The notes: a model not told the origin generated them from the letters alone. 64,000 nucleotides of DNA from Candidatus Omnitrophota bacterium (GCA_903856085.1 CAIOAT010000016.1:8581-72580); one strand, 5' to 3'; numbered from the stretch's first letter, positions 3,733-36,392 are shown. Program-made: numbers and translations.

Positions 3733-3918
3733 GGAGCAAGGAACAACTTGCTAACAACCTGCTAGGAGCTAACATTGTGGACAAGATTCAGAAAAGCTCC
3801 CCCTCCCTGCAGGAAGAGGACTGGAATGGAGGCGTGGGATCACCTGAAGACTTCCCATTGGTAGCGCAGTTTCACCTCGACGCAATTACTTAGAGGGGAC
3901 CCCGTTTTTCAGGGCTTC

Positions 3919-11455: not shown

Positions 11456-11467
11456 AGTTTTGAAACT

Positions 11468-13030
11468 CTAAAGCGACGGGCCCGCGCCTTGCTTCAGATC
11501 GAGGGGTGCTCCAAAAACATCGGCGAACATGTCCCCTTTCCGTCGCAGGCTTTCCCGTTCAAGCGAAATATCCCCGATCTCTTTCGGCACCCAGATCGCA
11601 TAAGTGTCTTCCGAACGTTCCAGAGTAAACGACCGGATCTTCTGCTGGTGGCCGGTGTCCAAAGCGTCTGCAATGCGCAGGATGGAAGCAAGTTTTGAGA
11701 CGATTGCCCGGTCCGATTTCGCAAGAGACATGTAAGGTACGTGCGTTTCGCGCGGCGGCACACGGCGATGATACCGGACAACATTAGCGACAATATTCTT
11801 GTCGGTCCTCCTCAGCCCGAAGATCTCGGCGGCATCCACTAAATAATACGAATGCTTGTGGTGTCCCGAAGGAGAAACGTAGGTTCCAATATCATGTAAG
11901 ATACCGGAAACCTCGAGCAAAAGACGCTCGCGGGACCCCATGCCATGATCTCCCGCAAGCAGGTCATAAAGTTTCAATGAGAGTGAGGCCACGCAAACCG
12001 CATGCCCCTTGTCGTACATATATTTTGCCCCAAGGTGGTGGGCGGAATTAAGGACCTGCTTCGAGACGTCCGTTCTTCGGTAACCCGAAAAAAGCTGGGC
12101 CATTTCGAGCAAAAGACCGTCCCGAATACTTAATTTTGGGATAATGACCTCCTCCGCCTTGGTTTCATTTAAAAAATTCAAATAAAAAAGAAGCGCGGGG
12201 TAAAGGGACTCCGCATGCCCATAATCGAGAGAGTATTGCGCGGCAATCTCTTCGGGCGTCATTTTCCCCACCCGCCCCATAAAACTCACAAATTCTTTCT
12301 TTTCAAGAATGGTGAAACGGTCGAGAGTCTCCGGAAGAAGCTGCTGCGATACGAATCGCATATCTCCACCCAGAGCAACGAACGTATCGATCTGCTCCAT
12401 ACGAACTTCACGCGCCACGTTCTGTGCGATATCCCGGATACTCTTCTTCAGAACACGCTGTATGAGTCCCGCATCTTCTTTCCCGGCTACGGCCTGCTCG
12501 GGAAGCCTTACTGATCCTATCGGCAGGGTCCGCGTAACGCTCACCCGACCTTGATCCATGATGATCATTTCCGTACTGCCAGAGCCTACTTCGACGATCA
12601 GGCAATTCTTTTTTTCGAGATCGATCCTCCCCTCCAGCGCATGCTCGACCGCGATCAATTCGAGACGGTTTTCTTCCGGGCCCTCCAAGATCTCCACTTC
12701 GATGCCAGCGCGCACATAGATTTGATCGATGAAATTATCCCGATTCTGGGCCTCCCGGACAGCGCTCGTGGCGATCGCTTGGACTTTTTTGATTCCATAC
12801 GTATCGATCACAGACTTGAAGTCTCGGAGAATGTTCACACCCTGGCGCATGGAAGCACTGCTCAACCTGCCCGTTTTAAAAACATCTTTGCCGAAACGAA
12901 CCGGCTTTTGAAGCTGCTCCAAATAACGAATCTCGTTTTTGGCTCCAACCTCCGCAATCACCATGCGGATTGCAATGGTTCCGATGTCAATAACGGCGGC
13001 GATATGTTTTTGAATTTCTTGTTCAGGCAT
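11468..13030 (-). CDS. ppx: Exopolyphosphatase/guanosine pentaphosphate phosphohydrolase (Ppx/GppA) with C-terminal HD domain
   Basis: ASKHA-fold N-terminus 'AAVIDIGTIAIRMVIAEV', C-terminal HD motif 'ILHDIG'; immediately downstream of ppk1 as in canonical ppk-ppx operons. Confidence 0.85.
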   Translation of the reverse strand: MPEQEIQKHIAAVIDIGTIAIRMVIAEVGAKNEIRYLEQLQKPVRFGKDVFKTGRLSSASMRQGVNILRDFKSVIDTYGIKKVQAIATSAVREAQNRDNFIDQIYVRAGIEVEILEGPEENRLELIAVEHALEGRIDLEKKNCLIVEVGSGSTEMIIMDQGRVSVTRTLPIGSVRLPEQAVAGKEDAGLIQRVLKKSIRDIAQNVAREVRMEQIDTFVALGGDMRFVSQQLLPETLDRFTILEKKEFVSFMGRVGKMTPEEIAAQYSLDYGHAESLYPALLFYLNFLNETKAEEVIIPKLSIRDGLLLEMAQLFSGYRRTDVSKQVLNSAHHLGAKYMYDKGHAVCVASLSLKLYDLLAGDHGMGSRERLLLEVSGILHDIGTYVSPSGHHKHSYYLVDAAEIFGLRRTDKNIVANVVRYHRRVPPRETHVPYMSLAKSDRAIVSKLASILRIADALDTGHQQKIRSFTLERSEDTYAIWVPKEIGDISLERESLRRKGDMFADVFGAPLDLKQGAGPSL

Positions 13031-13038
13031 GCTGTTCC

Positions 13039-14031
13039 CTACTTTTTGGCCGCTTTAAAAACTTCATGGGCCATTTTGGCGGCTCCTAAAATAACCGCAT
13101 TATCCTTCAGTTTGGACGGGACGATTTTCACCACTTTGGCGAGGGGCTTAAGCGCGTAAGCTTCCATCTCACGTCTGACCTCAGGAAGAATGATCTTTCC
13201 CATCGCCTCCATCATTCCTCCTCCCAAGAGGATCAATTCCGGATTCAAAATGTTCACCACATTCGCTAGCGCAACCCCGAGCCACCGGGAACGGCTCCGG
13301 ATCAGCTCCTCTAACGCGATATCCCCCGCTTTGATAGCGCGGGACAAAGCACCGCTGCGGATTTTTTTTACGTTATAACCGATCTCTTCGAGAAGATGCG
13401 GGCACTTCTGCCGCAGCAAGAGGAACCCCGCCTCCGATGCAATAGCATTCCTGCCGACCAAAGCTCCGACTTTTTGGCGCGACGTTTCAAAATCAGAAAA
13501 AGAAGGAAGTGACAGAAATGTCTGGCCGATCTCACCAGCTCCTCCAGAAGCGCCACGGTAAAGATGTCCGTTGATGATGAGCGCCCCGCCGATACCCGTT
13601 CCTAGGAAAACCCCCACGACTTCCCGATAACCCCGCGCTGCGCCGAATTGCTGTTCTCCGAAAAGCCCCGCATTGGCATCGTTTTCAATAAAGACCGGTG
13701 TTTTCAGCTTCGCTTTCAGTTTTTCAGCAAGTGAATAATTCTTAAAAAAAGATACGTTGGAGGAGACTTTGACGATCCCTTTATAGATATCAATGATTCC
13801 AGGACAACCCACACCGATGGTTACAAGATCACTCAGGTCCGACCCGGTTTCTTCCAGAACTTCCTCGATCCCGTCAATGAGCTTGTTGAAAAAGAACCTC
13901 TCGCCGCGATTACCGTCCATCTCAAGTTTGACGGTCTTTTTTAAACTAAATTTCCTGTCAAAAAGACCTATCAGAATCTTGGTCCCGCCCAGATCGATGC
14001 CAAGGATGAACTTCTTTTTCTTGCCCGCCAT
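13039..14031 (-). CDS. ROK-family sugar kinase (glucokinase; possible polyphosphate-glucokinase)
   Basis: 'ILGIDLGGTKI' ASKHA phosphate-1 motif, ROK family Cys/His-containing middle region; start re-set to MAGKKKK (ATG ~14031, GGAGAG SD). PolyP specificity only inferred from ppk/ppx neighbourhood. Confidence 0.7.
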   Translation of the reverse strand: MAGKKKKFILGIDLGGTKILIGLFDRKFSLKKTVKLEMDGNRGERFFFNKLIDGIEEVLEETGSDLSDLVTIGVGCPGIIDIYKGIVKVSSNVSFFKNYSLAEKLKAKLKTPVFIENDANAGLFGEQQFGAARGYREVVGVFLGTGIGGALIINGHLYRGASGGAGEIGQTFLSLPSFSDFETSRQKVGALVGRNAIASEAGFLLLRQKCPHLLEEIGYNVKKIRSGALSRAIKAGDIALEELIRSRSRWLGVALANVVNILNPELILLGGGMMEAMGKIILPEVRREMEAYALKPLAKVVKIVPSKLKDNAVILGAAKMAHEVFKAAKK

Positions 14032-14279
14032 AGACTCTCCCCTTTCAAAATTGATTTCCATTATAATGGCTCAGGGAAGTTTTTATGTAAAGCATTTGTA
14101 AAGTCTTGGTGGCTCTATCCATTCAGACCACCTAAAAAGCCCTTCCAGAAATTCCGTAGAGAAATCCACAGGCCCCTATCTTCACACAAAACACAGGGTA
14201 TTCCTCGCGATCTTTTAACGCAAACAAGCCATCACATAAACCTCTGTGCGAATGAACACGTTTTTCACAGGAACTGTTT

Positions 14280-17200
14280 TTATGCCGCTACTTTAACAGC
14301 CTTTGCATTTCTCCAGGAAGCAGCAAGGAACTCTGTGACAAGCATCAAGGCATCTTTCATGCCCCAAAGATCCCGTTTTCTTCCTAGCTCAAAAAGTTGC
14401 CGACTTGTGACAAGATACCAGAGAAGAGAAAAAAGAACCTCCGGGTCAGAGCTCTTCAACTCCTTATCGTAATAAACAAGATTCCCAACGCAACTCTTCA
14501 CCTTTTGGACTTCGCGGCGATCGATTCCGACATAAGCATAATCCAAGCGTTGATATTGAGGTCCGGTGACTAAGGGACGCAGGAATTTCAAAATGGAAGC
14601 ACTAATGCTATCAGATATCTCTACTAGCTGAAAATGTCCGGTAGGAAGCTCCATTTTCTTTATCTTTTGTTCGATTGCCTCTTTCCCGGGAAATCGACTC
14701 CTCTCGAACAGGATAATGACACGGAACGGCAGCCGCGAAAGCAGCAAAAGATGCTCATCGCGAATTCCGATCCTCGCGTCCAGGAAAAGGGTGTTCAAGG
14801 CATTGGCCCGCTGCGGAAGAGCGCGGAACATTCCCATTCCTTTTTGGAAGGCTAAAAAATCGTCCCCTGATAGCGCTAAAAGCTCCTTCAGATCCGGTCC
14901 TGTGCTTTCTGAAAGAAAACTCGCGTCACCCAAAAGAGATTTTAAGCGCGGTAAAAGTTTTACATCCTCCGGTCCTAGGATCCATTCCGTGATCTTGATG
15001 GCAACCAGAAGACGGACTTTCTCCGAAACAACCGGCGTCACGTCTTCTTGCAAGGAAATCTCACGCGTAACCTCTTTGGGATTGAGTTCTAACGCTGGGG
15101 GTTTTTCGGAAGTTCTGTCTTCTCTCAATTCGGAACGCAGCACCCCACCAGGGCCCACAGCAGCCAACGCGGTTGCAATCGCCGAAAAGTGCGTCGTTAG
15201 AATCTTGTAAGTACGCGGCGTAAAGACACCTCGTTTTTCACGCAACATCGTAGAAACATCCTCGGGGGAGAGGGCCACGATCTCAACGGCATCATCTCCC
15301 GGTCTAAATTCTTTCCAATTGAACTCTCCATTGAGCGAAAAATGAAACAACTTTACATCCTCTTTTCTTGTGGTGGGAACTTGCCTTCGCCCCTCATGAT
15401 GAACTTCATAGGAAAGAGGAGGGAGCTCCCGAACTGGTAATGAGGTTAAGGCCGCGGGAAGAGGGCGGCCATCACGGAGTTCTTCAAGGAACCCCCTCTG
15501 GATTGCGGCTTCCGGACTTTCTCCGGGCTCCAGATGCTCAAAAACGGGAAGATCCAATAGACCCGGATTACTGGAAGTTAAATTACTGCGCCGCTGAAAA
15601 ACAACTTTTCCATCCTTGGTCACAAATGCGGCAACCTTTAAGGCCGCCAGACCTCTTGCATGCCCCTGTTTTCTTGGCAAGTGTACGATTTGATCGCCTC
15701 GCGTATCACGAAACATAAAAATCTGCCGATCCGCGAGCAATGAACCTTCCCCCTCCAATCGCTCGACGGCTGTACGGTTCGCCAGCTCCGGAAAAGATAC
15801 CTCGAGGCGCTTCATCCGCTCCAAAATCCCAGCCCGATTGCTCCCAGATATAAAAAAATGATCGGAAGGCGCCGGAACAAAAGCCTCCACTTCAGGAGGC
15901 TTCTGCGCAGTCGCACGAAAGGTCTCCCACAGTTTTTTCCCCATCGTGCTATAAATCTTCGCATATGGATTGGCGGCATCTTGTCCATCCGAAAACGTTT
16001 TTTGATTATGAGCGAGCCTCTGAAGATTAGGCGACACCGAAGTATTCCCTCGAAGCTGAAGATCGAACTCAGCAACCACTCTCGCAAAATCCTCTACGAG
16101 ATCCACCACAAAAGCTCCATATTTTGAGATCAAGCTTTCTGTTTTTTTACGAAATACGTCTATCAATCCTTCCATCTGTTGACGTTCCTCCTCCGTCCTT
16201 GAAACAAGAGCCATGGGCCCTTTGGGAACTGCAAATTGAGGCGTGATCGCATTATCCAATGTCAGACCGGTCCCGAACAAATGCCCATACTGACCTAAGG
16301 CACCTTTCAATTCTTCTGGGCGACGAACCACATGCTCCACATCATGCCTCGGAGAACCGTTACGCCCCAACAACACGGGATGCCGATCTGTTTCAACTTC
16401 TTCCAGAGAAGCAAGCCGTGCGTCAATAACGATCTGACTTCCCTGGTTGTTATAGCTGATCACATTCGAGCTCAGGTCGCCTCCAGGGAAAATGATCTCT
16501 CCATGCTTCACGCCTTGCTCCCTGAAGTCGCCTGCCATCCGCAAAGCTTCGGCAAGATTCATCTTAAAGACCGCCATAGCAACCGCCAAAGGAATACCTG
16601 GCTGCGGGAACCAATAGATCTGTAATTTTTTACCCAACGACTCCGCCAGATCGCGAGCGGCAAAAAATTGTCCGGCATTCCCCGGGAAAAGGCCGTCGGA
16701 TTCCGCTACTTTGAAACGGAAATGTTTCAGAACATGATCCTGCGCTACCATTGTTTCAAAAAAATTCCGATTCTCTCCGTTTTTAGGCGGGAGCAAAATG
16801 ATCACCTCGACGTCCTCCCTCAAATTTTCATCCAAAAGCGCCCGGCTCATCTTTGCCATCATAAGATTTTCTCCGGCGACATCGTCCATCTGGGAAAGGG
16901 CAACTTCCCTCCTGGGTTCTGAGGCCGGTCGTGACATTTCATATTGTTTGTTTCTCATACGTTTCGCGGACGCCCGTAAGGATTGGATCTCACGTTTGAA
17001 AGTCCCGTAACCATTTCCACTAAGATTCCTCAACATCGGCCCCACATGCCTCCAAACTGAGAAAAGGGTCCACAAAACACCAAAGATTGTCGGAACTGTA
17101 ATCAACAACTGGTGCAAACCAAATATAAGGTTCAGGATGGGTACAATAAAAAGAATCGCCACTCCGGCCACCGCCAATGCCCGGCCAAGCCATCGTCCAT

Positions 17201-20200
17201 AAAAATGGTCTAGCTTGTTTCCTTCCAGCTCATCAAGTTCGGCTGTGGGATGGAACGCTTTATGGAGTCCTGCTTTTGCCACGCGCATGGCCTCACGTTC
17301 ATTTTCAAATCCGGATATTCCCAGTTTTTGCATATTGGCCGTCACGCGTCTAAAGCTGTTCAGCGTCACCCACCGATTGATCGCCACCATCAGCGTCACC
17401 CCGAGGCAAAGACGCCATATGGAAAAGGTCCAGAGAACCTTCCGATTGTGCAGGATCTTCTGCCAATCCGAGAACTTCATTCCGTCTTGAAGCAATAACT
17501 TGGGAGGATAAAGATCGATTACCTGGGAAAGGGCAATGAGCCGATTCGACAGATTGAATCCTTCATTAAAATTCTCTGCAAAATCGGCTGATTTTTCAAG
17601 AAACCTCAAAACCTCCTGCTCTTCGATATCATTCCCAGTCCCCCGAGTCGCCTGAAATTGACGGGAAGCCGTCTGAGCGGTCAGGATCGATAAGCGGGCC
17701 AAAATCCCACGGATCTTGACCAGAGAATGCGTGTCGGGTTTCCACATTTCAGAAAGGTCCTCAAAATGTTCCCGGGAAAATCTAAGCAGCGGATGCTGCG
17801 CCAACTCGCTGGCCTTTGTGGTGATCATATCCCTTTCGCCCGAACCCAAGTGCTCATTTTCTAAAAGAAGTCGAGTCCAAGCCTGAAGCGGCTCAACGAT
17901 TTCCTGGAACACCCGCATATCCACGTCATCACCGCGGACCGCTCTTTGTTTATTAGCGTTTCTTTTTAAACGCATCCCGATTTTTCCCGCCTCGTCAAAG
18001 AGAATCTCTAGAGATTCCACGGAATCTCTCCGGAAAAACTTCTCATGCCCTCTTTTTTTCATCAATGCGAAAAAAAGTTTTGGAAGATTCCAGACAAGTA
18101 GAACCAAAGCAAGAACCGGGAAAAAACGCCAACTGATGTAACGAGCCCCAAAAGGGTTCATGAAATACCTCAAGAGAGCCGCTCGCTGCGTGGGATTTTG
18201 TTCTTCCCTTACTAGCTCCAAAAGTCCCAGAACCCCGATCTTTTGTCCGGGATGCATTTGAAATTGTTCCTGAACGGATGCGGGAATCGAATCTATTAAG
18301 CGAAGAGGTGGCGACTTTCTTTCGACAAGATCGCCTTTCTTCTTCGCCCAGGCTGAGGCTTTGGCGGACCCATCGAAAGCAATATCCGCAACACTACCCT
18401 CGCCAAGAATTCCCTCCGTATCGTCGCTGCGGATCACAACTCCCTCCCGTTCACCCAAAAGCCATTGGCTGCTGTTCGCGAGAGGGATCACTGCATACAC
18501 TGTCCCCATCAAAACGCCGCGGGATGTCACGACAGAGACTTTATCTCCTGTTTTAACGCTTCCCGTTTCGACAGGGAGCAGAAAAGGATCCTCATTGGAA
18601 AGACGGCCTGTCCATTCTGCAGAACGGGGGTCAACGCTCGTTCCCAAAAAAACCTCTTTGTTTACAATGCCGGCTTTCGTCACCTGCCCCGCCGCCAACG
18701 TTTGTCCATCTAAAGCAGTAACGCCCAGAACACGACCCCCCACGGGAGCTTTGAGCAGGATGGGCAATCCGCTCCGCTGGATCCCTGCAACGGCCCGCTG
18801 AGCTCTTTTTTCATAGTCCTGGAGAGAGCTTTCGGGAAGAGTCCTAAAGTCCTGGTTCGCCTTACGCATTGTCCGTGCAAGAGTCTCAAGCTGTCTGGCA
18901 ATCTTGAGCTGCCCACCTTGCCCCACAGGGATCCATTCCCCCAAGGAGTCCCCGGCCTTAACCGTTTGTCCATCCCGAACTGTAGCTCGAAAAATTCCGG
19001 CGTCGATCCCGGGAACGGGAGGAACACCGACCGGGATGAACTGTGAAGATGGAATAGTGGTGTGAAATCCGGCATTGTGATGCAATCCTAACGATTCGAC
19101 GCTCGGAGTATTATCTTTTATCAGCTTAATATCATATGCACAACTCGCCCCATGGGCCGGAAGAGATGTGGAAGATGGGAAGCTGAAATGAACTGTTAAA
19201 ATAAATTCGCCGTCCACTCCTTTCGCAAGGTCAAAATGACTTGCTTCCCAATCCAACACATTCACGGAATGCCCATTGACGGAAAGTTCGATATCATCGG
19301 CTCCGGAATATCCCGGAGGAAGAGCAATCTTTATGACCCCCTCATCCAGAGGAACGATCCCCACGGCATAACTACCAGCCGTTGCCGGCCCCTGATCCAG
19401 TGTTTGAACGATTGCCGGGCGGGGCGAAACCAGGATGTCGGCTTCTGCTTCCGCCTTCAGTTGAGCGAGCTCCAGTTGATGTTCGATCCTCTCAAATTGA
19501 TATTGAAATATTGTGTCCCGGTCGAGAGTCCCCGCATCTTTTTCTCCTCTGGCCACCAACCCGCCAAGTTCTCGGATCCTATCTTCCAGAAATTGAGTCC
19601 TGTTATCGCGTTCTGTATCCTCTCCTCTCGCAAGCAGGTCGCCTTTTTTGACAACATCTCCAGGTTTAACGGCATAAGTCATCTTATCTGCCGTCAATGG
19701 GGCTTTGAGCATGACCGCACCGGGAGGATTCACGATTGCTTGTCCTTTGCCTGTATACAAGACAGTTGCTGTGTTTGCGACAGAGTGTTGCTCTTCAAAC
19801 ACTGGTTTGACCTCTGTCCTATCAGAAACAAGGGAGGCTGATGCGACGGAAGACGGCTCTTTCACGGAAGCCTCCTCGTTCGTGACATTCAAAGCATTGG
19901 CAGTCCCGGCTGGGCTTTGAAATGGTATCCCGGAAAAATCTTTCTTCGTGAGTTTCTCCTTTGCGCCTGACGAAGTCATTACCTGTTCTCCTTGAGAAAC
20001 CGCATCGGCCAAGGTTTCGCGCCCATCCACGTTGCCTACACCAAGAATTTCGATGACGGAACTATCCGGAGAGACCGATTGGGGGTTGGATGTCGCATGA
20101 TCGGCTTCAGAAATTTTTGGGCTCTCCGCGGTGGTTGGAAGTGCGGAAGATGGCCCATCCGCAGAAACCCTGTCGGAGAGGACCGATGATGCCGCTGCAA

Positions 20201-23200
20201 CCGGAGAAATATACGCTCTCGATACTTTTGAAGAATGCCCGTTCTCTGGAACGGAAGACGCTCCCTCCAAAGAAACAATTCGGAAATAGCCTTGGTGTTG
20301 GGGCACCACCACGAATGTTGCTTCATAAGGATTCTTGGTTTCCTTGCGTAATGTCCAGATCCCCTTTCTTTCCGTTTTAAGAAATTTCGCACCCTGCAGG
20401 TCTTTTCCTAAAAAAGTCACTGTAGAGGAGGGAACGCCCCGCTGCATTAAAAGCTGCGCTCCTTTCATGTTTTCGGTGATCATTTGTTTGCCCACCAATT
20501 TCTGAATCGCCAATTCATTGGTTTGAGCCAAGGCTGACGAAGCCATGAGAAAAGCCCCCAGCAAAAATCCTCCCATTATTTTTAACAAGAAATGGATTCC
20601 CAGCTTTCGGCGAACTTCTGAACGCTGTGGTGCAATTCCTAGCCCGAAGAAATTTGCCCCGGTGATAACATTCAAAGGTTCTACCCACGTTTCGGATGCG
20701 CGCAGATCTGTAAAACCCTTCGTAGTCCATACTTTTTCGGATACAACTTGAGCATTCAACCAATCTCTTAGTTCGTCCGGGATAGTTTTTGATCCCACCA
20801 GTCTCCACGAGAAAACCTTCCGGGAAAAACCTAAGACGATTTGGATATCAGCAATGGGTGGGGCGTTTTGATTCGTCTTCACGTGAAATAGGGTGCCATT
20901 TATGCCAAGCTTGTGCCCTCGTCTTAAAAATCCCTGCAATTCTGGAGACATCTCCAAAACAATTTTGCCAAGATCAACCCTGTAAACCAACCCCGCAACC
21001 TTTGTCTCTGGCCCAAAAGCTTCAATGTGCTTCGCCGAAAGAGAGGCTGCGCTCCGCATTTCGAATCTTGTCACACCCTTCTTGAAAGACCGATAAGCCT
21101 GCATCAAAAGGCCTGCGGCGATTGCTGACGCTTCCTCTTTTTCTTCAGCCCTTAGCTTTGATTCCCGCGTGTTCAATTCGATATATTCACGAATTCGAAC
21201 GTTAAGTCCAGATAGCGCAGAGGAGGTAAAATTCATCTCGAAAGATTCGATCGCTTTAGCGGCTAGCGCGTAAGGAACCAAGGTATCCGGCAGATCCTTG
21301 GCCTGTCCAAGATCGTTTCTAACCGATTCCAAATCGGCAAAAGTAACCCCGCCATTCCGTTCTTTTCCATAAATGAGTCCCCACGCAAGCGCCCAAGCCG
21401 CCATCGCCTGCTCAGCAGGGATTCGAATGGCCCCCTTAGCCGACGTCATAAGCTCGAGTGACACGGCGAGCATAGACGTCGGGATCATTGCATCCGCATC
21501 ATCCAACAACCCGCCATCGATCAAGCTCACGATCGCATGATGGGCAAGAGCACGCACGGTTCCGCAATCACTGAGATTAAGTTGCAAAAGCACTTCTGCA
21601 CGCTTCAAAGCTTCCCCAAGGATTTCCTTATTCATAACGGGATCAAGATAATTTGAACGCGCCTCCGAACGAACGACGATTTGCGCTTTCACCGATCCCG
21701 GTTCAGAACGGCCAGACGCTGCCTTTTCGCGAGAAAACCGATGGCGAGAGAGTTTCGAATCAACATTGGAACGCCGAAAGGCCTCTGAAATCAAAACACC
21801 CAGATGAATTTTTTTAATCATTTTCAAAGCCACCCAGGAAAAGGCAATATCCCCCGTAAGGATGACGAGCTCTGAAAGGTAGGGGCTTACAAGCTTGTTG
21901 ATAATCATCGCCATCCCCTCAACAGGAAGGAACCATAACAACAATTGACGGCGACTCTCCTTAAAAGATCCGTGGCTTTTGAAGAGTCGTAGAGATTCGA
22001 AGTTATTTTCAGGATAGATGTTTGTATAATATTTCCAGAGCATAAGTGGATAAAAAATATAAAAATTGATCAAAGCATCCCCCATGGTTTTAAGGACGAT
22101 CTCAGACCACACATCAAGCCATGGGGAAAGATTTAATTTCCCGATTAAGGCATAATAAACGGTAAAAAATAAAGCGAACAAGCTAGCTGGAGCTGCGGCT
22201 TTCCTGGAGTCTTTCCAGAATGTTTTCATGAACACTCCTCGAAAGCCATGGCGAAGATAATCCTGCATCCAGACACAATATGCCGCAATCATGCCAGCCC
22301 AGGCGATACTCACGCCAAGTGAAAGAACTAAAGAATGCCATGACGCGTTCTGAAGATGCGGTTTAAGGATAAACGCCAGCCCCAGAGTGGCGGCTGAAAA
22401 TCCAGCTGTCCCCATCGCGGCAGGTGTGATTTGTTTGAGATGAGCGAGTTTGGATCTCTGGTTCCTTATTTCGGACCGGCCGAGCAAGACTTGGGGCAAT
22501 CCCTTTACGTCCCGAGTAAGCACTTGCAGCTCTTTGGCTGCCAATGTGGCCGCCTTGCGAGAGAATAGGATTTGGATCTGATTACTGGGGATCTTTAAAG
22601 CGTCCACAATAAGCCGGTCCTCGGTAACGCCAGCCCCACGAGCCTTTTTCAGATAGCCATCAATCCTTGCATTCTCGGCCTCCGCAATCCGTATCGTCTC
22701 ATTTTCAGCCACAATCGTTTGAAGAAGACCTGCAATCTTCTCTTCGATTTTGTCATGAACTGTCAAGAGCTCGGCTTCCGCTACACGAGTCTCCAGAAGA
22801 GCTATTTCCCGATTGGCTCGCTCAGCGCCCCCGAAAGTCACCTTCCCGCCGAGACCTACGGCCTGCTGATCCTCCGTGCGTTGTTTTGCCTCCGGAACAA
22901 CTCTTGTATTGAACACATCCGGAACTTTTGTCCCATAGGAATCGAAATAGTTGAATCCCTTAAGACCGATCGAGTAACCGTTCTCTCTTGCAGCCAATCT
23001 CGCGGCCGTTGCGGCAGTCAAACGGGCCTCATAAGCCAACGCAAGTTCACGGTTTGCCGGAAGTTTGACGCCTTCTTTGGAGGTTGCTTTAAGACCAAGC
23101 GCTATTCGTTGATCGGTTGTGATCGTCCACCCTTCCGGAAATCGCACATAATTCAAGGCATTGGAAAAAGTCGCACATCCTAAGATGTTTTGGCCATAGA

Positions 23201-25985
23201 GTGTCCTCAAAGGCAATGCCGCCTTCTCCAACTTGGAACGATGCTCATTAAGACGTAAAAGCCACTCCGCCTTAAGATCTCCGATCGCCTGGCGTTTTGC
23301 GGCTGTTGACTGCGAGTTCTTGCCGGCGACTTCGCTAGCATGATCGATCGCCTCAAGGGCTGCTTCAATAATTGGGCCTTGTGATTCAAGCGTTTTCATT
23401 TCGTAGGCGGCCCCCAAGAAATCGAGGTATCGTTCACCCGCCACCTGCTGAAGTTCCAGTCCGGCTGTTTCAACCATCTGCTGCGCCAGTTCTCGCGCCA
23501 GGATATCCTGACCTTTCCAGTATTTGCTAATCTCCGCTGCAAGGGATAACACCGCACTGGCCGCCGAATCCAAACCGATCCCCGTTAATTGTATCTGCCC
23601 AAGATTCGGCAAAGTTCCTTCGACGCCAAGCCCAAGCACCGGTTTCCCATCTGCGAGACCTAGGGTAGGCATGAGAGAAATGCTCCCGGACAAACTTCTT
23701 TTTTTGGATTCCCGGATACTCACCTCAAAACGGTGTCTCAGAATGACCGGATCGCGAGTAACCAATGCTTCAGCCAGGGAGCTTTCATTCACCAGAATCG
23801 GACCGGACAGAGAAATTTCTTTTTGCGGCAAAATGTACTGACGATCCGATTCGATCTGTTGTCTCGCATGGTCACGGCCCAAATTCGCACAACCGCTGAG
23901 AATGCCTGCCATTACAACCCAAAGAACCGCCTTCATGAACGAGGAGGGCTTCCATCGGATCTCGGCGCGCGAGAACAAATTGTTTTTTCCCTGGATCGCG
24001 TCGGGGAGCAATGCCAAAAGTCCCTTCTCCGCCCCGGGAGATAGCAAGGGAGTCGGATCTAAAATGAATCCGACATGGGTATTCATTCTCTGAAATAAGA
24101 AGCTCAAAACGTGTTGCTCTAATGCTTGACGAACTTCATGCATCCCTTTGTAAAATTTCTCCGGAATGGCTGCGAATATCCGTTGTCCCTCCCCATCCAT
24201 GAATGCCGACTTTCCCGTCTGGGATCTTTGGGCCAACACGCTGTGTTCTCCCTCGGAAACATCGACCACCGCCACTTGATGTTTTTTAAGTGATCTTTCG
24301 ATCTGTCCCATAGCCGCTTCAAAATGGTCAAATGCTGGCTCTCCGACCATCTGCCTCGCCTCGGAGTGTTCCATCACGGGGAGCTGCGCGGGAGCGATCG
24401 TAGACGTCCCGGGATACCGCCCCATCAAGAGATCACTATAGGGAAGCATCTTTTCTTCCGGGTTGAAATACGGCGTCACAAGATTGAACGGTATCCCAAG
24501 CGCTTCTGTTCGCCTGAGTAGTCCTTCCTTATGGTAGCCTCCGGCAACAATCACAATGTTTCTGGTTTTATTCCCCTGTCCATTCAAAAAAAGAGGATCT
24601 TGAATCCTTTTTTTGATGATATCAAAAAAAACATCTTCGCGAGCTTCTGCCTGAGCATAAAAATCCAAAACAAGGTCGACAAGGGGCGCTATCGTCTCTT
24701 CGTGAGGGAGTGATGGCTCCCGGAGAAAGCGCTTGTAAGCCTGCACCCAGTTCTTGCGAAAATGGTCGCGAAACCGGGCCACGCACTCCCTTTTAAGTTC
24801 AAGGGAAAGCGCCTGTTTCAGGAGGAAAAAATCCTGGTAAAAGGCAAGCCATCGTCCAGCTACCGGATCACTGCGACGGAGGGTCTCATACAACCTGTTC
24901 TCGAGCGTCTGGATTTCGTCAAAAAGTCTTTCGGCTATAAGTTCGCTTTCAAATACCTGCAAAGCAAGAAACTTCCGAATCATCGGATAACGTCCCCAAG
25001 AAAGCTCCCGTGCCAAAAATTTCTCCATGATGCGTTCCGCCATAACGCGAGAAGTCACGCTTCCAGTCTGAAGTGCGCGTGACCGGAAAGTTGCATTCGA
25101 AGCGGCGCTCTCGAGCCATTCGATTTCCGATCGAGAATCCGGACCAAGCACCCGTTTAAGCTGTCCGATTTCTTTCGTGACTGCGCTACAATCCGGTGCT
25201 GTTTCCGTATTCAAAACACGGAAAAACCGAACTAGCTGAGGCCAATCTTTTTGCGTCGAAAGATCCCGCCAATCGATTCCCAAATGCTTCGAAGAGCAAT
25301 CAAAAAGAAACTTCATGTACTCGCTTAAATCATTTTGGCTTTCCTGATGAGATCTCCACATTTTCAAGAAATGGAATACCTGCGGATCAATAACTTTTTT
25401 GATATCTTGAATTAATGATGCCTCCACCTGATCAAGAAACTCTCGAATCTCACCATGGTTGCGCATAACGGCCCGGTAAGTTTCGAGGTTCTTTCGGTAA
25501 AGCCCTGCCTCCTCAATCCCGTACACGCGTATGCCGGAGTGATTTGCAAAGAATTGAGTGGCGCCATTAACGAATCCCGCTTGGAAAAGGCTTCCCAAAA
25601 AGATCCTGTTCTTTTCATCATCCTGGAAAGGCTTCAGAGCCTCGGGAGACAGAGGGCCTGATGCACCTTCAATAAAAAGCATATCGAGTTTCTTTTGCTC
25701 TAGAAGGGACTCTAGTATCTTCGTAATATTCTTTTGAGCCTCTTCCGAAGCATGCGCATCTTGGATATGGTAGAAACTGAAAGGCACGGACCTTTCCGGG
25801 GGCGGGGACTTTTCAAGGCTTCCTACTTTGGGGGATAAAAAAACGGGGGCTTCGGCAACAGCGCCGGTATAAAAATATGCCGTCACAGCACGCACTTCTT
25901 GGGAAGGAAAAATGGTTTCAAAAACAAAAATGGCCACAACAGCAAATGCTACGATCCGGATCAATTTGCTTTTCTTGGCTTTCAT
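14280..25985 (-). CDS. Giant (~3,900 aa) multidomain envelope protein: N-terminal module of unknown function, lipobox + TolC-like OMF repeats, polytopic TM block, internal signal-peptide-like segment, S/P/A-rich linker, two HlyD-like membrane-fusion modules, further TM blocks, C-terminal cytoplasmic region with Nudix-like domain
   Basis: Single ORF with no in-frame stop over 11.7 kb (impossible by chance at ~50% GC). TolC-like coiled-coil/beta repeats (aa ~720-1230), MFP lipoyl/beta-barrel motifs ('AVKPGDVVKKGDLL…', '…TVKAGDSLGEW…LKAPVGGRVLGV'), hydrophobic helix clusters, Nudix-box-like 'GESPEAAIQRGFLEELRDG'. ATG at 25985 (GGAAAAGGG SD) or TTG at 26015. Confidence 0.8.
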   Translation of the reverse strand: MKAKKSKLIRIVAFAVVAIFVFETIFPSQEVRAVTAYFYTGAVAEAPVFLSPKVGSLEKSPPPERSVPFSFYHIQDAHASEEAQKNITKILESLLEQKKLDMLFIEGASGPLSPEALKPFQDDEKNRIFLGSLFQAGFVNGATQFFANHSGIRVYGIEEAGLYRKNLETYRAVMRNHGEIREFLDQVEASLIQDIKKVIDPQVFHFLKMWRSHQESQNDLSEYMKFLFDCSSKHLGIDWRDLSTQKDWPQLVRFFRVLNTETAPDCSAVTKEIGQLKRVLGPDSRSEIEWLESAASNATFRSRALQTGSVTSRVMAERIMEKFLARELSWGRYPMIRKFLALQVFESELIAERLFDEIQTLENRLYETLRRSDPVAGRWLAFYQDFFLLKQALSLELKRECVARFRDHFRKNWVQAYKRFLREPSLPHEETIAPLVDLVLDFYAQAEAREDVFFDIIKKRIQDPLFLNGQGNKTRNIVIVAGGYHKEGLLRRTEALGIPFNLVTPYFNPEEKMLPYSDLLMGRYPGTSTIAPAQLPVMEHSEARQMVGEPAFDHFEAAMGQIERSLKKHQVAVVDVSEGEHSVLAQRSQTGKSAFMDGEGQRIFAAIPEKFYKGMHEVRQALEQHVLSFLFQRMNTHVGFILDPTPLLSPGAEKGLLALLPDAIQGKNNLFSRAEIRWKPSSFMKAVLWVVMAGILSGCANLGRDHARQQIESDRQYILPQKEISLSGPILVNESSLAEALVTRDPVILRHRFEVSIRESKKRSLSGSISLMPTLGLADGKPVLGLGVEGTLPNLGQIQLTGIGLDSAASAVLSLAAEISKYWKGQDILARELAQQMVETAGLELQQVAGERYLDFLGAAYEMKTLESQGPIIEAALEAIDHASEVAGKNSQSTAAKRQAIGDLKAEWLLRLNEHRSKLEKAALPLRTLYGQNILGCATFSNALNYVRFPEGWTITTDQRIALGLKATSKEGVKLPANRELALAYEARLTAATAARLAARENGYSIGLKGFNYFDSYGTKVPDVFNTRVVPEAKQRTEDQQAVGLGGKVTFGGAERANREIALLETRVAEAELLTVHDKIEEKIAGLLQTIVAENETIRIAEAENARIDGYLKKARGAGVTEDRLIVDALKIPSNQIQILFSRKAATLAAKELQVLTRDVKGLPQVLLGRSEIRNQRSKLAHLKQITPAAMGTAGFSAATLGLAFILKPHLQNASWHSLVLSLGVSIAWAGMIAAYCVWMQDYLRHGFRGVFMKTFWKDSRKAAAPASLFALFFTVYYALIGKLNLSPWLDVWSEIVLKTMGDALINFYIFYPLMLWKYYTNIYPENNFESLRLFKSHGSFKESRRQLLLWFLPVEGMAMIINKLVSPYLSELVILTGDIAFSWVALKMIKKIHLGVLISEAFRRSNVDSKLSRHRFSREKAASGRSEPGSVKAQIVVRSEARSNYLDPVMNKEILGEALKRAEVLLQLNLSDCGTVRALAHHAIVSLIDGGLLDDADAMIPTSMLAVSLELMTSAKGAIRIPAEQAMAAWALAWGLIYGKERNGGVTFADLESVRNDLGQAKDLPDTLVPYALAAKAIESFEMNFTSSALSGLNVRIREYIELNTRESKLRAEEKEEASAIAAGLLMQAYRSFKKGVTRFEMRSAASLSAKHIEAFGPETKVAGLVYRVDLGKIVLEMSPELQGFLRRGHKLGINGTLFHVKTNQNAPPIADIQIVLGFSRKVFSWRLVGSKTIPDELRDWLNAQVVSEKVWTTKGFTDLRASETWVEPLNVITGANFFGLGIAPQRSEVRRKLGIHFLLKIMGGFLLGAFLMASSALAQTNELAIQKLVGKQMITENMKGAQLLMQRGVPSSTVTFLGKDLQGAKFLKTERKGIWTLRKETKNPYEATFVVVPQHQGYFRIVSLEGASSVPENGHSSKVSRAYISPVAAASSVLSDRVSADGPSSALPTTAESPKISEADHATSNPQSVSPDSSVIEILGVGNVDGRETLADAVSQGEQVMTSSGAKEKLTKKDFSGIPFQSPAGTANALNVTNEEASVKEPSSVASASLVSDRTEVKPVFEEQHSVANTATVLYTGKGQAIVNPPGAVMLKAPLTADKMTYAVKPGDVVKKGDLLARGEDTERDNRTQFLEDRIRELGGLVARGEKDAGTLDRDTIFQYQFERIEHQLELAQLKAEAEADILVSPRPAIVQTLDQGPATAGSYAVGIVPLDEGVIKIALPPGYSGADDIELSVNGHSVNVLDWEASHFDLAKGVDGEFILTVHFSFPSSTSLPAHGASCAYDIKLIKDNTPSVESLGLHHNAGFHTTIPSSQFIPVGVPPVPGIDAGIFRATVRDGQTVKAGDSLGEWIPVGQGGQLKIARQLETLARTMRKANQDFRTLPESSLQDYEKRAQRAVAGIQRSGLPILLKAPVGGRVLGVTALDGQTLAAGQVTKAGIVNKEVFLGTSVDPRSAEWTGRLSNEDPFLLPVETGSVKTGDKVSVVTSRGVLMGTVYAVIPLANSSQWLLGEREGVVIRSDDTEGILGEGSVADIAFDGSAKASAWAKKKGDLVERKSPPLRLIDSIPASVQEQFQMHPGQKIGVLGLLELVREEQNPTQRAALLRYFMNPFGARYISWRFFPVLALVLLVWNLPKLFFALMKKRGHEKFFRRDSVESLEILFDEAGKIGMRLKRNANKQRAVRGDDVDMRVFQEIVEPLQAWTRLLLENEHLGSGERDMITTKASELAQHPLLRFSREHFEDLSEMWKPDTHSLVKIRGILARLSILTAQTASRQFQATRGTGNDIEEQEVLRFLEKSADFAENFNEGFNLSNRLIALSQVIDLYPPKLLLQDGMKFSDWQKILHNRKVLWTFSIWRLCLGVTLMVAINRWVTLNSFRRVTANMQKLGISGFENEREAMRVAKAGLHKAFHPTAELDELEGNKLDHFYGRWLGRALAVAGVAILFIVPILNLIFGLHQLLITVPTIFGVLWTLFSVWRHVGPMLRNLSGNGYGTFKREIQSLRASAKRMRNKQYEMSRPASEPRREVALSQMDDVAGENLMMAKMSRALLDENLREDVEVIILLPPKNGENRNFFETMVAQDHVLKHFRFKVAESDGLFPGNAGQFFAARDLAESLGKKLQIYWFPQPGIPLAVAMAVFKMNLAEALRMAGDFREQGVKHGEIIFPGGDLSSNVISYNNQGSQIVIDARLASLEEVETDRHPVLLGRNGSPRHDVEHVVRRPEELKGALGQYGHLFGTGLTLDNAITPQFAVPKGPMALVSRTEEERQQMEGLIDVFRKKTESLISKYGAFVVDLVEDFARVVAEFDLQLRGNTSVSPNLQRLAHNQKTFSDGQDAANPYAKIYSTMGKKLWETFRATAQKPPEVEAFVPAPSDHFFISGSNRAGILERMKRLEVSFPELANRTAVERLEGEGSLLADRQIFMFRDTRGDQIVHLPRKQGHARGLAALKVAAFVTKDGKVVFQRRSNLTSSNPGLLDLPVFEHLEPGESPEAAIQRGFLEELRDGRPLPAALTSLPVRELPPLSYEVHHEGRRQVPTTRKEDVKLFHFSLNGEFNWKEFRPGDDAVEIVALSPEDVSTMLREKRGVFTPRTYKILTTHFSAIATALAAVGPGGVLRSELREDRTSEKPPALELNPKEVTREISLQEDVTPVVSEKVRLLVAIKITEWILGPEDVKLLPRLKSLLGDASFLSESTGPDLKELLALSGDDFLAFQKGMGMFRALPQRANALNTLFLDARIGIRDEHLLLLSRLPFRVIILFERSRFPGKEAIEQKIKKMELPTGHFQLVEISDSISASILKFLRPLVTGPQYQRLDYAYVGIDRREVQKVKSCVGNLVYYDKELKSSDPEVLFSLLWYLVTSRQLFELGRKRDLWGMKDALMLVTEFLAASWRNAKAVKVAA

Positions 25986-26119
25986 TTTTTGCCCTTTTCC
26001 AATGGTGGAAGACAACTCTTTAAGGTTTTATAAAAGTTTTTCCTTCTGATCTCACGGAAAGCTTAACTTCGTTGTGAAAACTCTGCATCACATCCCGGTA
26101 AAGATAATGTAAAAACAAT

Positions 26120-26177: not shown

Positions 26178-26391
26178 CCTTAACGACGAAATGCTCGAAC
26201 AGGAATCTGGGGCGCAAAGTCTGAATCTCTCTATTTGCTCTTCACTGTGCTTTTGAAATGCTCGCAGCAAGGCACATCTCTCCATTTCAAAAATTTCTTG
26301 GAAACCTTCCTTTCAGAAGTGTAAAGAGTTGGTAAAGCTTCTATCTGTTACGCTGAAACAGGTTATGTCCGATTTGAAACTCCTCCGATTT

Positions 26392-26439: not shown

Positions 26440-27129
26440 ATGGCAAGCGAAACGATTCTCCTCATTGAAGACGAAAAGAACATCCTTGAGCTTGTGAAAT
26501 ACAACCTCGAGCAGGAGGGTTTTCGCGTCCTCACCGCGACCAAAGGCAACGCAGGTCTTGAGACAGCGCTTAAAGAAAAACCAGCCCTTGTGCTCCTCGA
26601 CCTCATGCTCCCGGAAATCAATGGCCTCGAGATTTGCAAAACCCTAAAACAGACCGAAAAAACACGCAGGATCCCTATCATCATGCTTACGGCCAAAGGC
26701 ACCGAGTCCGATAAAGTCGTCGGCCTCGAACTCGGCGCCGATGATTACATCACCAAACCTTTCAGCCCCCGGGAACTCGTAGCTCGCATCAAAGCCGTCC
26801 TTAGACGCTCTCAGGAAAAAGCCCCGGAAGAGATCTTGAGATCCGGAACGATCGAGCTTGACGTGACAAAGCATGAGCTGCGATTAAAAGGAAAGCCCGC
26901 CGAAATTACCGCCAAAGAATTCGAACTCTTGCGCGTACTCATGAGTTCCAAGGAACGGGTCCTGACGCGCGAGGTTCTCTTATCAAAAGTTTGGGGTTAT
27001 GAGAATTCTGTGAATATCGAAACGCGGACTGTCGACATGCACGTCGGACAGCTACGAAAAAAACTTGGCAAAGAAGCGGATCGGATCGTCACGGTTAAAA
27101 GCGTCGGCTACCGTTTCGACGGAGAATAA
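26440..27129 (+). CDS. phoB: OmpR/PhoB-family response regulator
   Basis: REC domain with D at 'LLDLMLP', winged-helix output '…VWGYENSVNIETRTVDMHVGQLRKKL…TVKSVGYRF'; adjacent to PhoR-like kinase and in a Pho-gene neighbourhood (symbol is inferred). Confidence 0.85.
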   Translation: MASETILLIEDEKNILELVKYNLEQEGFRVLTATKGNAGLETALKEKPALVLLDLMLPEINGLEICKTLKQTEKTRRIPIIMLTAKGTESDKVVGLELGADDYITKPFSPRELVARIKAVLRRSQEKAPEEILRSGTIELDVTKHELRLKGKPAEITAKEFELLRVLMSSKERVLTREVLLSKVWGYENSVNIETRTVDMHVGQLRKKLGKEADRIVTVKSVGYRFDGE

Positions 27130-27130
27130 G

Positions 27131-28903
27131 ATGGGCTTTCCAAAGATCGGTTTCGCCAAACGTCTCCTCGTGCTGTATGGCATTATTTTCATCCTCGTCC
27201 TGCTCGTAACCGATTGGACGCTTTCTCATTTCCTCCAAAAGCGTGACCTCCAACAGCTTCAGAGCTCTCTTTCGCGTCAGTCGACCCTGATCCGCGAGAT
27301 TGCGACTCCTCTATTAAAGGAGGCTCCCAAGCTCCAATCCAAAGTCAAAAAGCTAGCCGAGGGGACCGATCTTCGCATCACGATCATCGATCCCGAAGGC
27401 GCGATCCTTGCCGATTCCAGTGAAACCAGCGAGGCTCTCGCGAAAATGGACAATCACGCGACCCGGCCCGAGGTTGCGTCCGCACTGAGAAAAGAAACGG
27501 GCATGAGCATCCGTTACAGCATGACTGTTCAGACCAAAATGCTTTATATCGCTATCCCCATCCTGGAACACTCCCAGATCCTAGGGGTCGTTCGCACCGC
27601 GATGCCGATCACACGCGTCGATGAGATCCTGGCCTCGGTCCGCCGACCCGTGATGCTCGCAGCGGTCCTCGGCATTTTGATCGTCCTCGTTGCCGGCATT
27701 CTCTTCGGCGGTCGCCTCACCCAACGCATAGGACGCATCACCTCCGTAGCCGAACGTTATGCCCGCGAGGACTGGTCTGAAAAAATCCTGATGGACGGCC
27801 GCGACGAGCTCAAAATGCTCGCAGATACCATGAATCAAATGGCCACATCCCTGCGCTCAAGGATCGAAGACCTGGAAAGTGAGAAAGGTAAGATTTCCGT
27901 CATTTTGAGCAATATGAACGAAGGGGTGATCGCGATTAGCCGGCGCAAACAGTTTGTTATGGCAAATCCCGCAGCGGAAAAAATCTTTGGATTCACTGCC
28001 GCCCATACGCAGGAGAAAAGTCTGATCGAAATCACACGCCACCCTCAACTCGAAAGGATCGTGGACCACGCCTTCCAGGAGCAAAAAAACGCCTCCTCCG
28101 AAATCCAGATCTCCGGCAAGATAAAAAAGACACTTCTTGCAAATGTGATCGTTCTCGATGCCCACGCCCGCGATATCGGCGGCATCCTTGTTTTTCATGA
28201 CATGACGGAGCTCCGTCGACTCGAGAATATCCGGAAGGAATTCGTAGCCAATGTTTCCCACGAACTCCGCACGCCCCTCACCTCGATTAAGGGATTCATT
28301 GAAACGTTGCTGGGCGGCGCCTTAAAAGATCCCCCGACCAGCGAACGGTTCCTGAAAATTGTTTCGGAGGAGACGGATCGACTCGGAAGGCTGGTGGAAG
28401 ATATTCTGACGCTTGGCGAGATCGAACAGGGCGCGGCTCTGGTCAGGAAAGAAAAGATCGATCTTGCCTCTGAACTCCCGGCCATCCTGGAACGATTTAA
28501 GACCCAGCTCCAAGAAAAAAAGATCGCGGTCGAAAACCGCATCTCCGGGAAACCTCTCCCGCTATCTGGAGACAGGGACAAAGTCCATCAGGTCTTCGTC
28601 AATCTCATCGACAATGCGATCAAATTCAATAAGCCTGAAGGGATGATCGTCCTGTCTGCCGATCAAAGTCCGAAAGGCGTGGTGATTACCATCGAGGATA
28701 CGGGGATCGGTATTCCTGAAGAGTCCCTAGGACGGATTTTTGAGCGGTTCTTTCGTGTGGATAAAGCACGTTCAAAGGAGCTTGGAGGAACCGGATTGGG
28801 CCTAGCCATCGTTAAACACATCATGGAAGCGCATGGCGGCCACGCCACATGCCAAAGCACCCCCGGCCAGGGTTCCCGCTTTTCGGTTTTTTTTCCCGCC
28901 TGA
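27131..28903 (+). CDS. phoR: Sensor histidine kinase (PhoR-like; two TM helices flanking ~150-aa periplasmic domain, HAMP, PAS, HisKA, HATPase_c)
   Basis: H-box 'VSHELRTPLTSIKGF', N/G1/G2 boxes 'LIDNAIKFN…DTGIGIP…GGTGLGLAIVK'; start set to ATG 27131 (GGAGAA SD, 1 nt after RR stop). Confidence 0.85.
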   Translation: MGFPKIGFAKRLLVLYGIIFILVLLVTDWTLSHFLQKRDLQQLQSSLSRQSTLIREIATPLLKEAPKLQSKVKKLAEGTDLRITIIDPEGAILADSSETSEALAKMDNHATRPEVASALRKETGMSIRYSMTVQTKMLYIAIPILEHSQILGVVRTAMPITRVDEILASVRRPVMLAAVLGILIVLVAGILFGGRLTQRIGRITSVAERYAREDWSEKILMDGRDELKMLADTMNQMATSLRSRIEDLESEKGKISVILSNMNEGVIAISRRKQFVMANPAAEKIFGFTAAHTQEKSLIEITRHPQLERIVDHAFQEQKNASSEIQISGKIKKTLLANVIVLDAHARDIGGILVFHDMTELRRLENIRKEFVANVSHELRTPLTSIKGFIETLLGGALKDPPTSERFLKIVSEETDRLGRLVEDILTLGEIEQGAALVRKEKIDLASELPAILERFKTQLQEKKIAVENRISGKPLPLSGDRDKVHQVFVNLIDNAIKFNKPEGMIVLSADQSPKGVVITIEDTGIGIPEESLGRIFERFFRVDKARSKELGGTGLGLAIVKHIMEAHGGHATCQSTPGQGSRFSVFFPA

Positions 28904-34346: not shown

Positions 34347-34351
34347 TTTTG

Positions 34352-34642: not shown

Positions 34643-34713
34643 AAATTCCTCCTCATTTCAAAAACCACCGGACCAGCGCCAATAATGACCGCTCTTTTTT
34701 TGCTCAGAGCGGC

Positions 34714-36279: not shown

Positions 36280-36392
36280 CGCTCTTCCTCCCTTTTGTTA
36301 GACACCCAGGACTGCCTTGCAACCGATTTTGCGGGTTCGCAGTACTGCTGAAGTCTTTATTTTTATTCAGAGGATCGAGGAACATTTTTCTA

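Follow-up and report, generated by a model that had tools for sequence, protein, structure and literature searches.

A giant Omnitrophota gene combines outer-membrane-factor and adaptor modules in one frame and may encode a polyprotein-like precursor

Giant genes are already known from the Omnitrophota (PMC10066038), and their products have been described as 'Archaeovorins' or 'multi-enzyme metabolic clusters' – multi-module proteins with signal peptides, transmembrane (TM) segments, and NUDIX or sugar-metabolism domains (10.1101/2023.11.21.568195, 10.64898/2026.06.07.730766). Cleavage of these giants has been proposed, the 'cleavage points' being unknown (10.1101/2023.11.21.568195, 10.64898/2026.06.07.730766), and the 2026 preprint holds that a topology of signal peptide plus TM segments conflicts with the metabolic domains (10.64898/2026.06.07.730766). 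Here we analyse a giant gene of a Candidatus Omnitrophota bacterium, carried on a stretch of 64,000 nucleotides (GCA_903856085.1 CAIOAT010000016.1:8581-72580; hereafter the window), in which an outer membrane factor (OMF) and a membrane fusion protein (MFP, or adaptor) share a single open reading frame (ORF). The layout points to a polyprotein-like precursor, from which cleavage is predicted to release the OMF as a lipoprotein of its own, apart from an MFP-anchored protein: a reading to which we give about even chances.

The protein resembles the published Omnitrophota giants in phylum, in its multi-module chain and in its signal peptide, TM segments and NUDIX domain; this, together with the existence of orthologues in other Omnitrophota genomes, bears out the suggestion of a first-pass annotation that the gene belongs to the same phenomenon. 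It is, however, some ten times smaller – at 3.9 thousand amino acids (kaa) it falls under the published cut-offs of >=10 kaa or >20 kb – and its delimiter motifs, common N-terminal domain and OMF/MFP content are not described in the published preprints. The terms TolC, HlyD and efflux are found neither in PMC10066038 nor in the 2023 or 2026 preprint, TraB is not found in the 2023 preprint, and linker and motif are not found in the 2026 preprint; the literature yielded nothing relevant on the motif strings, or on 'polyprotein' in combination with Omnitrophota. In tripartite systems, OMF, MFP and transporter are the three principal components according to the accessible part of a 2021 Chem Rev review, within which a term search found no OMF-MFP fusion. 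The interest for efflux and secretion biology lies in the two being encoded here in one frame and, in relatives, directly fused.

The frame itself is real. It stays open for 3911 codons, counted from a TTG at 26015 (as are all amino acid (aa) positions given for the ORF), and translation probably begins at an ATG at 25985 that is preceded by 'AAGGG' and yields the 3901-aa protein P0001 (100% match to the query). Chance is dismissed as its origin given ~3900 stop-free codons at 49% GC. The first-pass annotation had proposed independent assemblies as a check on its uninterrupted frame, and these agree: a protein identical to P0001 is encoded on at least 18 contigs from ENA, NCBI, JGI and Logan assemblies, the longest of 414 kb, and orthologues in other Omnitrophota metagenome-assembled genomes, at 30–53% identity, are single open frames of 3.2–3.8 kaa. 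The exception is L006 (Omnitrophica RIFOXYB12_FULL_50_7), where one frame change at ~7618-7684 separates 1951 aa from 629 aa. It is this orthologue alone that favours an artefact – assembly chimera, lost stop codon or pseudogene – as the source of the giant ORF; set against the identical protein on contigs from independent sources, the uninterrupted orthologues, and an architecture and synteny kept at 30% identity, that explanation is barely credible, and we dismiss both chimera and chance. The L006 frame change lies away from any delimiter and may be either a sequencing error or a real frameshift. The housekeeping proteins of the window share clusters at 90% identity or above with proteins named 'Candidatus Omnitrophota bacterium'.

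What sets the layout apart is a short junction motif. Counted as R[SAPT]E[VILMAS]R, it occurs five times in the protein against 0.1 copies expected, and all five copies, which fit the narrower R[SA]E[VILA]R, stand at module borders; relatives carry up to 18 copies against 0.15 expected, and the 40 other ORFs of the window (15,351 aa) carry none. The copies are flanked by small residues and spaced at a median of 324 aa, roughly the length of a single protein. Among orthologues four of five positions are conserved and the flanks are not. The codons of the motif vary synonymously, which places selection at the level of the peptide. That RSExR might reflect a nucleotide element, such as an in-frame Shine-Dalgarno sequence, was considered and rejected, because of this variation and because the DNA is not purine-rich.

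The second feature is what follows the motif. Directly behind three of the five copies come a lipoprotein signal (after RAEIR), a TM block (after RSEIR) and a Sec signal (after RSEVR); more generally, signal-like hydrophobic segments are 3–4 times commoner after the motif than after random positions, and RR motifs like those of twin-arginine (Tat) signals ~11 times commoner (8/341 versus 0.2%). Seven other relatives that share the N-terminal domain of the protein (N-domain, see below) have a delimiter, a signal and a lipobox before their OMF, P0099 having an AxA-type signal instead of the lipobox, and in five of the seven a delimiter also closes the OMF. This pattern upstream of the OMF spans three delimiter classes: RSExR, AASLG and GARLA. 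In P0012 the Pfam domains lie between motifs, and in both P0016 and P0012 native-like enzyme N-termini start ~10 aa past one. Whether Omnitrophota giants are cleaved is a question put explicitly in the literature, and the delimiters and the export signals behind them offer concrete residues for it. As a separate observation, alternative repeated junction pentapeptides (GARLA/GARLS, AARLS and [AG][AS]SLG) occur in P0059, P0038, P0023, P0027 and P0031, and in P0059 twin-arginine signals (SRRNFLKG, SRRDFLRRG) stand directly after two of them.

The first two delimiters enclose the OMF. Its lipobox, ILSGC, which the first-pass annotation had picked out ahead of a TolC-like module, lies at aa 705-709 with a Cys709 that is invariant in 10/10 homologues, and orthologues carry Tat or Sec signals with a lipobox at the same border. 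The search proposed at that stage, for Pfam OEP (PF02321), divided: the module here reaches 16.3 bits, short of the gathering score of 22, and five of ten homologues match at E<=0.05 (best 4.1e-5). Since a profile of the module gave coiled-coil noise alone against PDB sequences, its identity called for structure prediction. An AlphaFold2 (AF2) model built on a nine-sequence alignment has a mean predicted local distance difference test score (pLDDT) of 72, with long helices above 90 and beta segments below 50, and its first 44 Foldseek matches in the PDB are all OMFs (E to 3.8e-9, TM-score 0.5–0.64, ~480 columns), including TolC, ST50, OprM, CusC, VceC, CmeC, MtrE, OprN and SilC. The model has the duplicated long antiparallel helices and beta-hairpin of an OMF protomer, and the segment from Cys709 onward is predicted to fold like TolC/OprM.

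With TolC and the lipoprotein OMFs (OprM, CusC, NodT family) the module shares a predicted twofold repeat of helix, beta-hairpin and long helix, and with the latter also an N-terminal lipobox Cys and a mature size – 476 aa – that is that of a mature OMF; length and lipobox together would place it in the OprM/NodT lipoprotein subclass. It differs from them in being embedded in a 3901-aa ORF and in its marked divergence, with Pfam OEP sub-threshold and no PDB sequence-profile match. Among 1.84 billion representative proteins searched with a profile there were only 28 relatives, almost all inside proteins of 1.3–4 kaa. The OMFs of giant proteins form a divergent clade almost confined to such proteins.

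The position of this module within the chain raises a topological difficulty. By the positive-inside rule and the way lipoprotein signals work, the N-terminal signal would lie N-in, with the N-domain outside the cytoplasm; the lipobox signal, whose N-side reads RAEIRWK, and the TM block behind the OMF, preceded by RSEIRNQRSK...K, would each need a cytoplasmic N-side; and the OMF would end in the periplasm. An uncut chain would then fail at both ends of the OMF, because an exported N-domain would have to be followed by a cytoplasmic lipobox N-side, and a periplasmic OMF C-terminus by a cytoplasmic TM-block N-side. A further conflict is posed by the 17 family members that lack any TM segment after the signal peptide, some of which carry enzymes of cytoplasmic type. 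Cutting at the delimiters would resolve all these conflicts and leave a mature OMF of canonical size. Separate products are, in our best reading, a better fit to the layout than one covalent chain.

The first-pass annotation had envisaged a single chain that could span outer membrane, periplasm and inner membrane; left unprocessed, it would be a covalent machine of ~430 kDa. The idea is not absurd. At least eight genomes conserve the frame without interruption, and true single-chain MFP-OMF fusions do occur in relatives such as P0096 and P0103-P0108. In P0096, P0098, P0100, P0102-P0106 and P0108 the MFP is joined directly to the OMF with no signal, delimiter or N-domain, which gives these proteins the look of genuine one-chain fusions of adaptor and channel, headed by an N-terminal signal peptide. 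Here, however, the OMF has its own lipoprotein signal after positive charges, one of a conserved set of lipobox and Tat signals that come after an exported domain; its periplasmic C-terminus is succeeded by a positive-inside TM block; and RSExR delimiters stand at each junction. Nor, by what is established about Lol, could that system sort an OMF lipoprotein whose C-terminus is held in the inner membrane. A single spanning chain is not the best fit to this protein, and we think it unlikely.

The partner of the OMF in the frame is an MFP. A profile of aa 2070-2620 matches MexA (E 3.3e-4), and when the region is split its second unit alone recovers the domain order lipoyl, alpha-hairpin, lipoyl, beta-barrel, aligning with E. 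coli AcrA/MacA/EmrA/MdtA by hhalign (95.6% probability, E 1.2e-8, 203 columns). Of the two MFP-like modules claimed at first, this second one stands; the first, at 33% hhalign probability (P 4.5e-4), is a possible unit. Pfam MFP families score below threshold (Biotin_lipoyl_2, 17.3 versus 29.8 bits), and the relative P0007 has a precomputed PF25917 match. The earlier claim that OMF-like and MFP-like modules share one frame is sustained on these grounds, by structure for the OMF and by hhalign for one MFP unit, and the two occur together, in two different orders, in almost every OMF-bearing giant protein. The unit is like AcrA, MexA, MacA and EmrA in domain order and in standing behind an N-terminal signal or anchor. 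Its differences from them are a short hairpin, a possible tandem duplication, and a junction through TM segments to what would be ~1200 aa of cytoplasmic sequence including NUDIX.

The lack of a cognate ABC, RND or MFS transporter is a further difference. No energised inner-membrane transporter (ABC, RND, MFS, MacB) was detected, either in the ORF (E<=1-5) or in the scan of genes of the window, where the sole transporter component is PstC. The set encoded by the ORF thus falls short of a complete tripartite or type I system.

Taken as a whole, the layout suggests the following course of events. The pentapeptides would mark the module borders of a precursor, and the modules behind three of the five would bring their own means of export or insertion – lipoprotein signal, Sec signal or TM block. 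Cuts at or near the motifs by a putative protease, combined with the action of signal peptidases II and I, would give rise to six products: an exported N-domain protein; a 476-aa OprM/NodT-type OMF lipoprotein; a small polytopic inner-membrane protein; a soluble protein; an inner-membrane-anchored, periplasmic AcrA-like adaptor, possibly tandem, with a cytoplasmic tail that includes NUDIX; and a C-terminal soluble protein. OMF and adaptor would assemble into a TolC-adaptor-type duct across the envelope for a presumed cargo, its components made in fixed stoichiometry during phosphate starvation.

Separate products might instead arise at the junctions by internal translation initiation or ribosome skipping. 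An in-frame Met does stand seven codons past RAEIR, and 'MKAVLWVVMAGILSGC' would be a perfect lipoprotein precursor, but the Met is not conserved in orthologues, and an internal Met start for the OMF was rejected for this reason. Nor is the DNA of the motif Shine-Dalgarno-like, its codons being variable, and ribosomes arriving from upstream would, with no stop codons in their way, still read through. We regard this route as highly improbable.

Several points weigh against proteolytic release. Cleavage is purely something we infer from the sequence, and the signal and TM calls come from hydropathy and inspection, not from a dedicated predictor. The beta-barrel segments of the OMF model, at pLDDT <50, give low confidence for a barrel. 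The duct would have no energised transporter partner in the ORF or among the scanned genes. Fewer than three recognisable delimiters are present in 41 of the 77 N-domain proteins, and the direct MFP-OMF fusions of relatives show that a covalent link between those modules is tolerated.

The protein opens with a part that the first-pass annotation had omitted, as it had the five RSExR junction motifs: a stretch of ~670 aa in front of the lipobox, comprising the signal and the N-domain that defines its family. The N-domain has invariant features (H, E, R and GGxH) and no Pfam match, and its Foldseek matches are not significant; its fold may resemble that of the effectors RRSP and HopBA1, and what distinguishes it from the ChaN/EreA/TraB-PrgY-GumN/Tiki superfamily is, besides the lack of a Pfam match, a ~300-aa helical insertion. 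The family comprises 77 giant homologues of 2–6.5 kaa that have only the N-terminal ~450 aa in common with the query and carry highly variable enzyme domains; the few named sources are Omnitrophota, Auribacterota, Elusimicrobia and Endomicrobiaceae. Seventeen members have no TM segment after the signal peptide, some of them with cytoplasmic-type enzymes. The notion that the N-domain is an obligatory partner of the delimiters was weakened by the 41 of 77 members without recognisable delimiters or other repeated 4-mers. A stand-alone N-domain homologue of 531 aa also exists in another genome (L015, 10001-11596): a TM segment lies at its N-terminus, its stop codon is immediately followed by the ATG of glmS (MCGIIGY...), and the two genes adjoin dnaA, dnaN, gyrB and gyrA.

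These properties of the family invite a different explanation, in which the giant is a secreted effector, exported whole and cut outside the cell or in a host in the manner of MARTX toxins, its folds serving attachment or a channel in a partner cell. A classical signal peptide does begin nearly all family members, many of which lack other TM segments yet carry cytoplasmic-type enzymes; the N-domain may have the effector-like fold just mentioned; and it has been proposed that Omnitrophota live as symbionts or predators (PMC10066038). Yet internal Tat, Sec and lipoprotein signals make sense from the cytoplasm of the producer alone, a place in the Pho regulon together with pstS and polyphosphate genes suggests a role in the physiology of the cell itself, and the surrounding genome has tricarboxylic acid cycle and housekeeping genes. 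We judge an effector doubtful.

For the polyprotein-like precursor, viral polyproteins and MARTX toxins, the latter with an internal processing protease, offer a possible parallel in that short conserved sequences divide them into protein-sized units. Proteases (Tiki, RRSP) also belong to the fold superfamily to which the N-domain may be compared. The MARTX CPD, C39 and S8 domains are absent here, and the analogy would be mechanistic alone. Extended to the family, and held more tentatively, at somewhat under even chances, the proposal is that giants of the Omnitrophota and neighbouring phyla may be true bacterial polyproteins, in which the lineage-specific pentapeptides RSExR, GARLA/AARLS and AASLG would act as cleavage sites that free protein-sized units, each unit would reach its destination through a Sec, Tat or lipoprotein signal of its own or remain cytoplasmic, and the ChaN/TraB/Tiki-like N-domain might aid processing; in the present case the outcome would be a stoichiometric OMF-adaptor duct under phosphate starvation. 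If true, the same delimiters could supply the missing cleavage map for Omnitrophota giants of 10–150 kaa.

The link to phosphate comes from the regulatory DNA. The direct repeat TTTAC-N6-TTTAC occurs four times in 64 kb against 0.03 expected, always on the minus strand (at 1978-1993 and at the three sites of Table 1): three copies are upstream of pstS, the ROK-PPX-PPK1 genes and the giant gene, and the fourth lies close to the phoB-like gene. The same box recurs in the corresponding intergenic region at L007, L008 and L009, three loci in which the order regulator, giant gene, ROK is kept at ~30% identity. We regard it as a candidate Pho box of this lineage of Omnitrophota. Of the divergent regulatory pair, the regulator has PhoB as its best NCBIfam match, below cutoff, and the kinase passes the PnpS cutoff. 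The first-pass annotation, which had placed the gene in a Pho island beside a PhoBR-like pair and suggested phosphate-responsive expression, was right about the island, with its pst and ppk genes; and such control, on the strength of the divergent PhoB/PnpS-like pair and of conserved boxes common to pstS, is well supported, making the giant gene a probable Pho-regulon member. The shared boxes would tie it to a defined regulon and stimulus.

As to the rest of the protein (Table 1), the earlier description of a polytopic TM block, further TM blocks and a ~900-aa tail was recovered by Kyte-Doolittle hydropathy and flanking charges: a hydrophobic block at ~aa 1199-1400, additional segments within 2626-2988, and a tail of ~920 aa. 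The tail includes a NUDIX domain, which scores 25.6 and 31.8 bits in Pfam against a cutoff of 21.1 and is present in five of ten homologues. By eye, its Nudix box (GX5EX7REUXEEXGU), in LEPGESPEAAIQRGFLEELRDG, keeps E-x7-R-x-U-x-E-E but lacks the first and last G as well as the E in 'RE', and is thus partly degenerate. Apart from OMF, MFP and NUDIX there was no further match in Pfam, NCBIfam or PDB sequences; the TM block, the tail domain, the module at 1454-1797 and the C-terminal 280 aa had none in Pfam and/or PDB sequences. A MacB/FtsX-like reading of the four C-terminal TM segments, prompted by the loop after the first of them, was dropped because there is no Pfam match and no nucleotide-binding domain, and because flanking charges place the loop in the cytoplasm.

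Table 1. Coordinates of the giant gene, its modules and delimiters, and the associated regulatory features (nucleotide positions are those of the window).
Feature	Position (aa)	Position (nt)	Strand	Basis or remark
Giant coding sequence, 3901 aa from ATG		14280..25985	minus	open frame extends to TTG at 26015
Putative N-terminal signal peptide/anchor, MKAKKSK before	18-36	25908..25964	minus	hydropathy; signal-like N-termini in nearly all family members
Family-defining N-domain: putative ChaN/EreA/TraB-like alpha/beta core + ~300-aa helical insert	38-575	24291..25904	minus	
Delimiter 1, RAEIR	683-687	23955..23969	minus	
Internal lipoprotein signal WKPSSFMKAVLWVVMAGILSGC, ends ILSGC	688-709	23889..23954	minus	sequence, homologue alignment
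OMF (TolC/OprM-like) module	709-1179	22479..23891	minus	AF2 + Foldseek
Delimiter 2, RSEIR	1180-1184	22464..22478	minus	
Polytopic membrane module, conserved, 4-6 TM	1185-1448	21672..22463	minus	hydropathy, no known family
Delimiter 3, RSEAR	1449-1453	21657..21671	minus	
Soluble module	1454-1797	20625..21656	minus	no Pfam or PDB match
Delimiter 4, RSEVR	1798-1802	20610..20624	minus	
Sec-type signal RKLGIHFLLKIMGGFLLGAFLMASSALA, AxA end, then QTN	1803-1833	20517..20609	minus	read by eye
S/P/T-rich stretch	1834-2075		minus	sequence
MFP-like region	2076-2620		minus	profile searches
First MFP-like unit, weak (lipoyl half + coiled coil)		19116..19718	minus	Biotin_lipoyl_2 sub-cutoff, hhalign 33%
Second MFP unit (lipoyl, hairpin, lipoyl, beta-barrel)		18372..19016	minus	profile match to MexA, hhalign
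TM segment, ~290-aa loop, TM hairpin	2626-2652 (TM), 2947-2988 (hairpin)	17052..18140	minus	hydropathy + flanking charges; topology inferred
Conserved tail domain (AESDGxFPG, ILGRNG motifs)	2995-3460	15636..17033	minus	
NUDIX	3461-3597	15225..15635	minus	Pfam PF00293
Delimiter 5, RSELR	3627-3631	15123..15137	minus	
C-terminal 280-aa module	3632-3911	14283..15122	minus	no Pfam/PDB match
Pho-box-like direct repeat TTTACATTATCTTTAC, 113-128 nt upstream of giant-gene ATG		26098..26113	minus	
Second Pho-box-like repeat, regulator side of divergent intergenic region		26321..26336	minus	
PhoB-like response regulator + PnpS/PhoR-like histidine kinase, divergent		26440..28903	plus	
ROK kinase, PPX, PPK1, downstream of giant gene		9386..14102	minus	own box at 14087-14102

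The genes of the window around the giant gene include pstC, pstS, a porin, PPK2, an acyltransferase with a PF13444 GNAT gene, a weak, sub-threshold PHP-domain protein, PPK1, PPX and ROK. Those at 24-4776 and 9386-13030 on the minus strand (PstC, PstS, a Porin_5 porin, PPK2, PPK1, PPX) form an unusually complete phosphate/polyphosphate island. At 5902-7480, also on the minus strand, the PlsC-type acyltransferase (PF01553) adjoins the GNAT gene (PF13444), a pairing like that of OlsA/OlsB in the synthesis of phosphorus-free ornithine lipids, which would fit an island of phosphate starvation. The divergent intergenic region also holds, flanked by its two Pho-like boxes, an inverted repeat with perfectly matching 10-nt arms, TTTTGAAATG / CATTTCAAAA, set 22 nt apart (26251-26292). 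The kinase ORF (27065-28903, plus strand), 612 aa from a TTG, overlaps the regulator gene by 65 nt; its true start is probably further downstream, since gene callers give 590 aa on another contig. Elsewhere in the window three consecutive ORFs without Pfam match (295, 521 and 406 aa; 33648-37884, minus strand) occupy a stretch of lower GC (44–48%) and adjoin a 979-aa multi-glycosyltransferase protein (38641-41580) and a sulfotransferase-like ORF.

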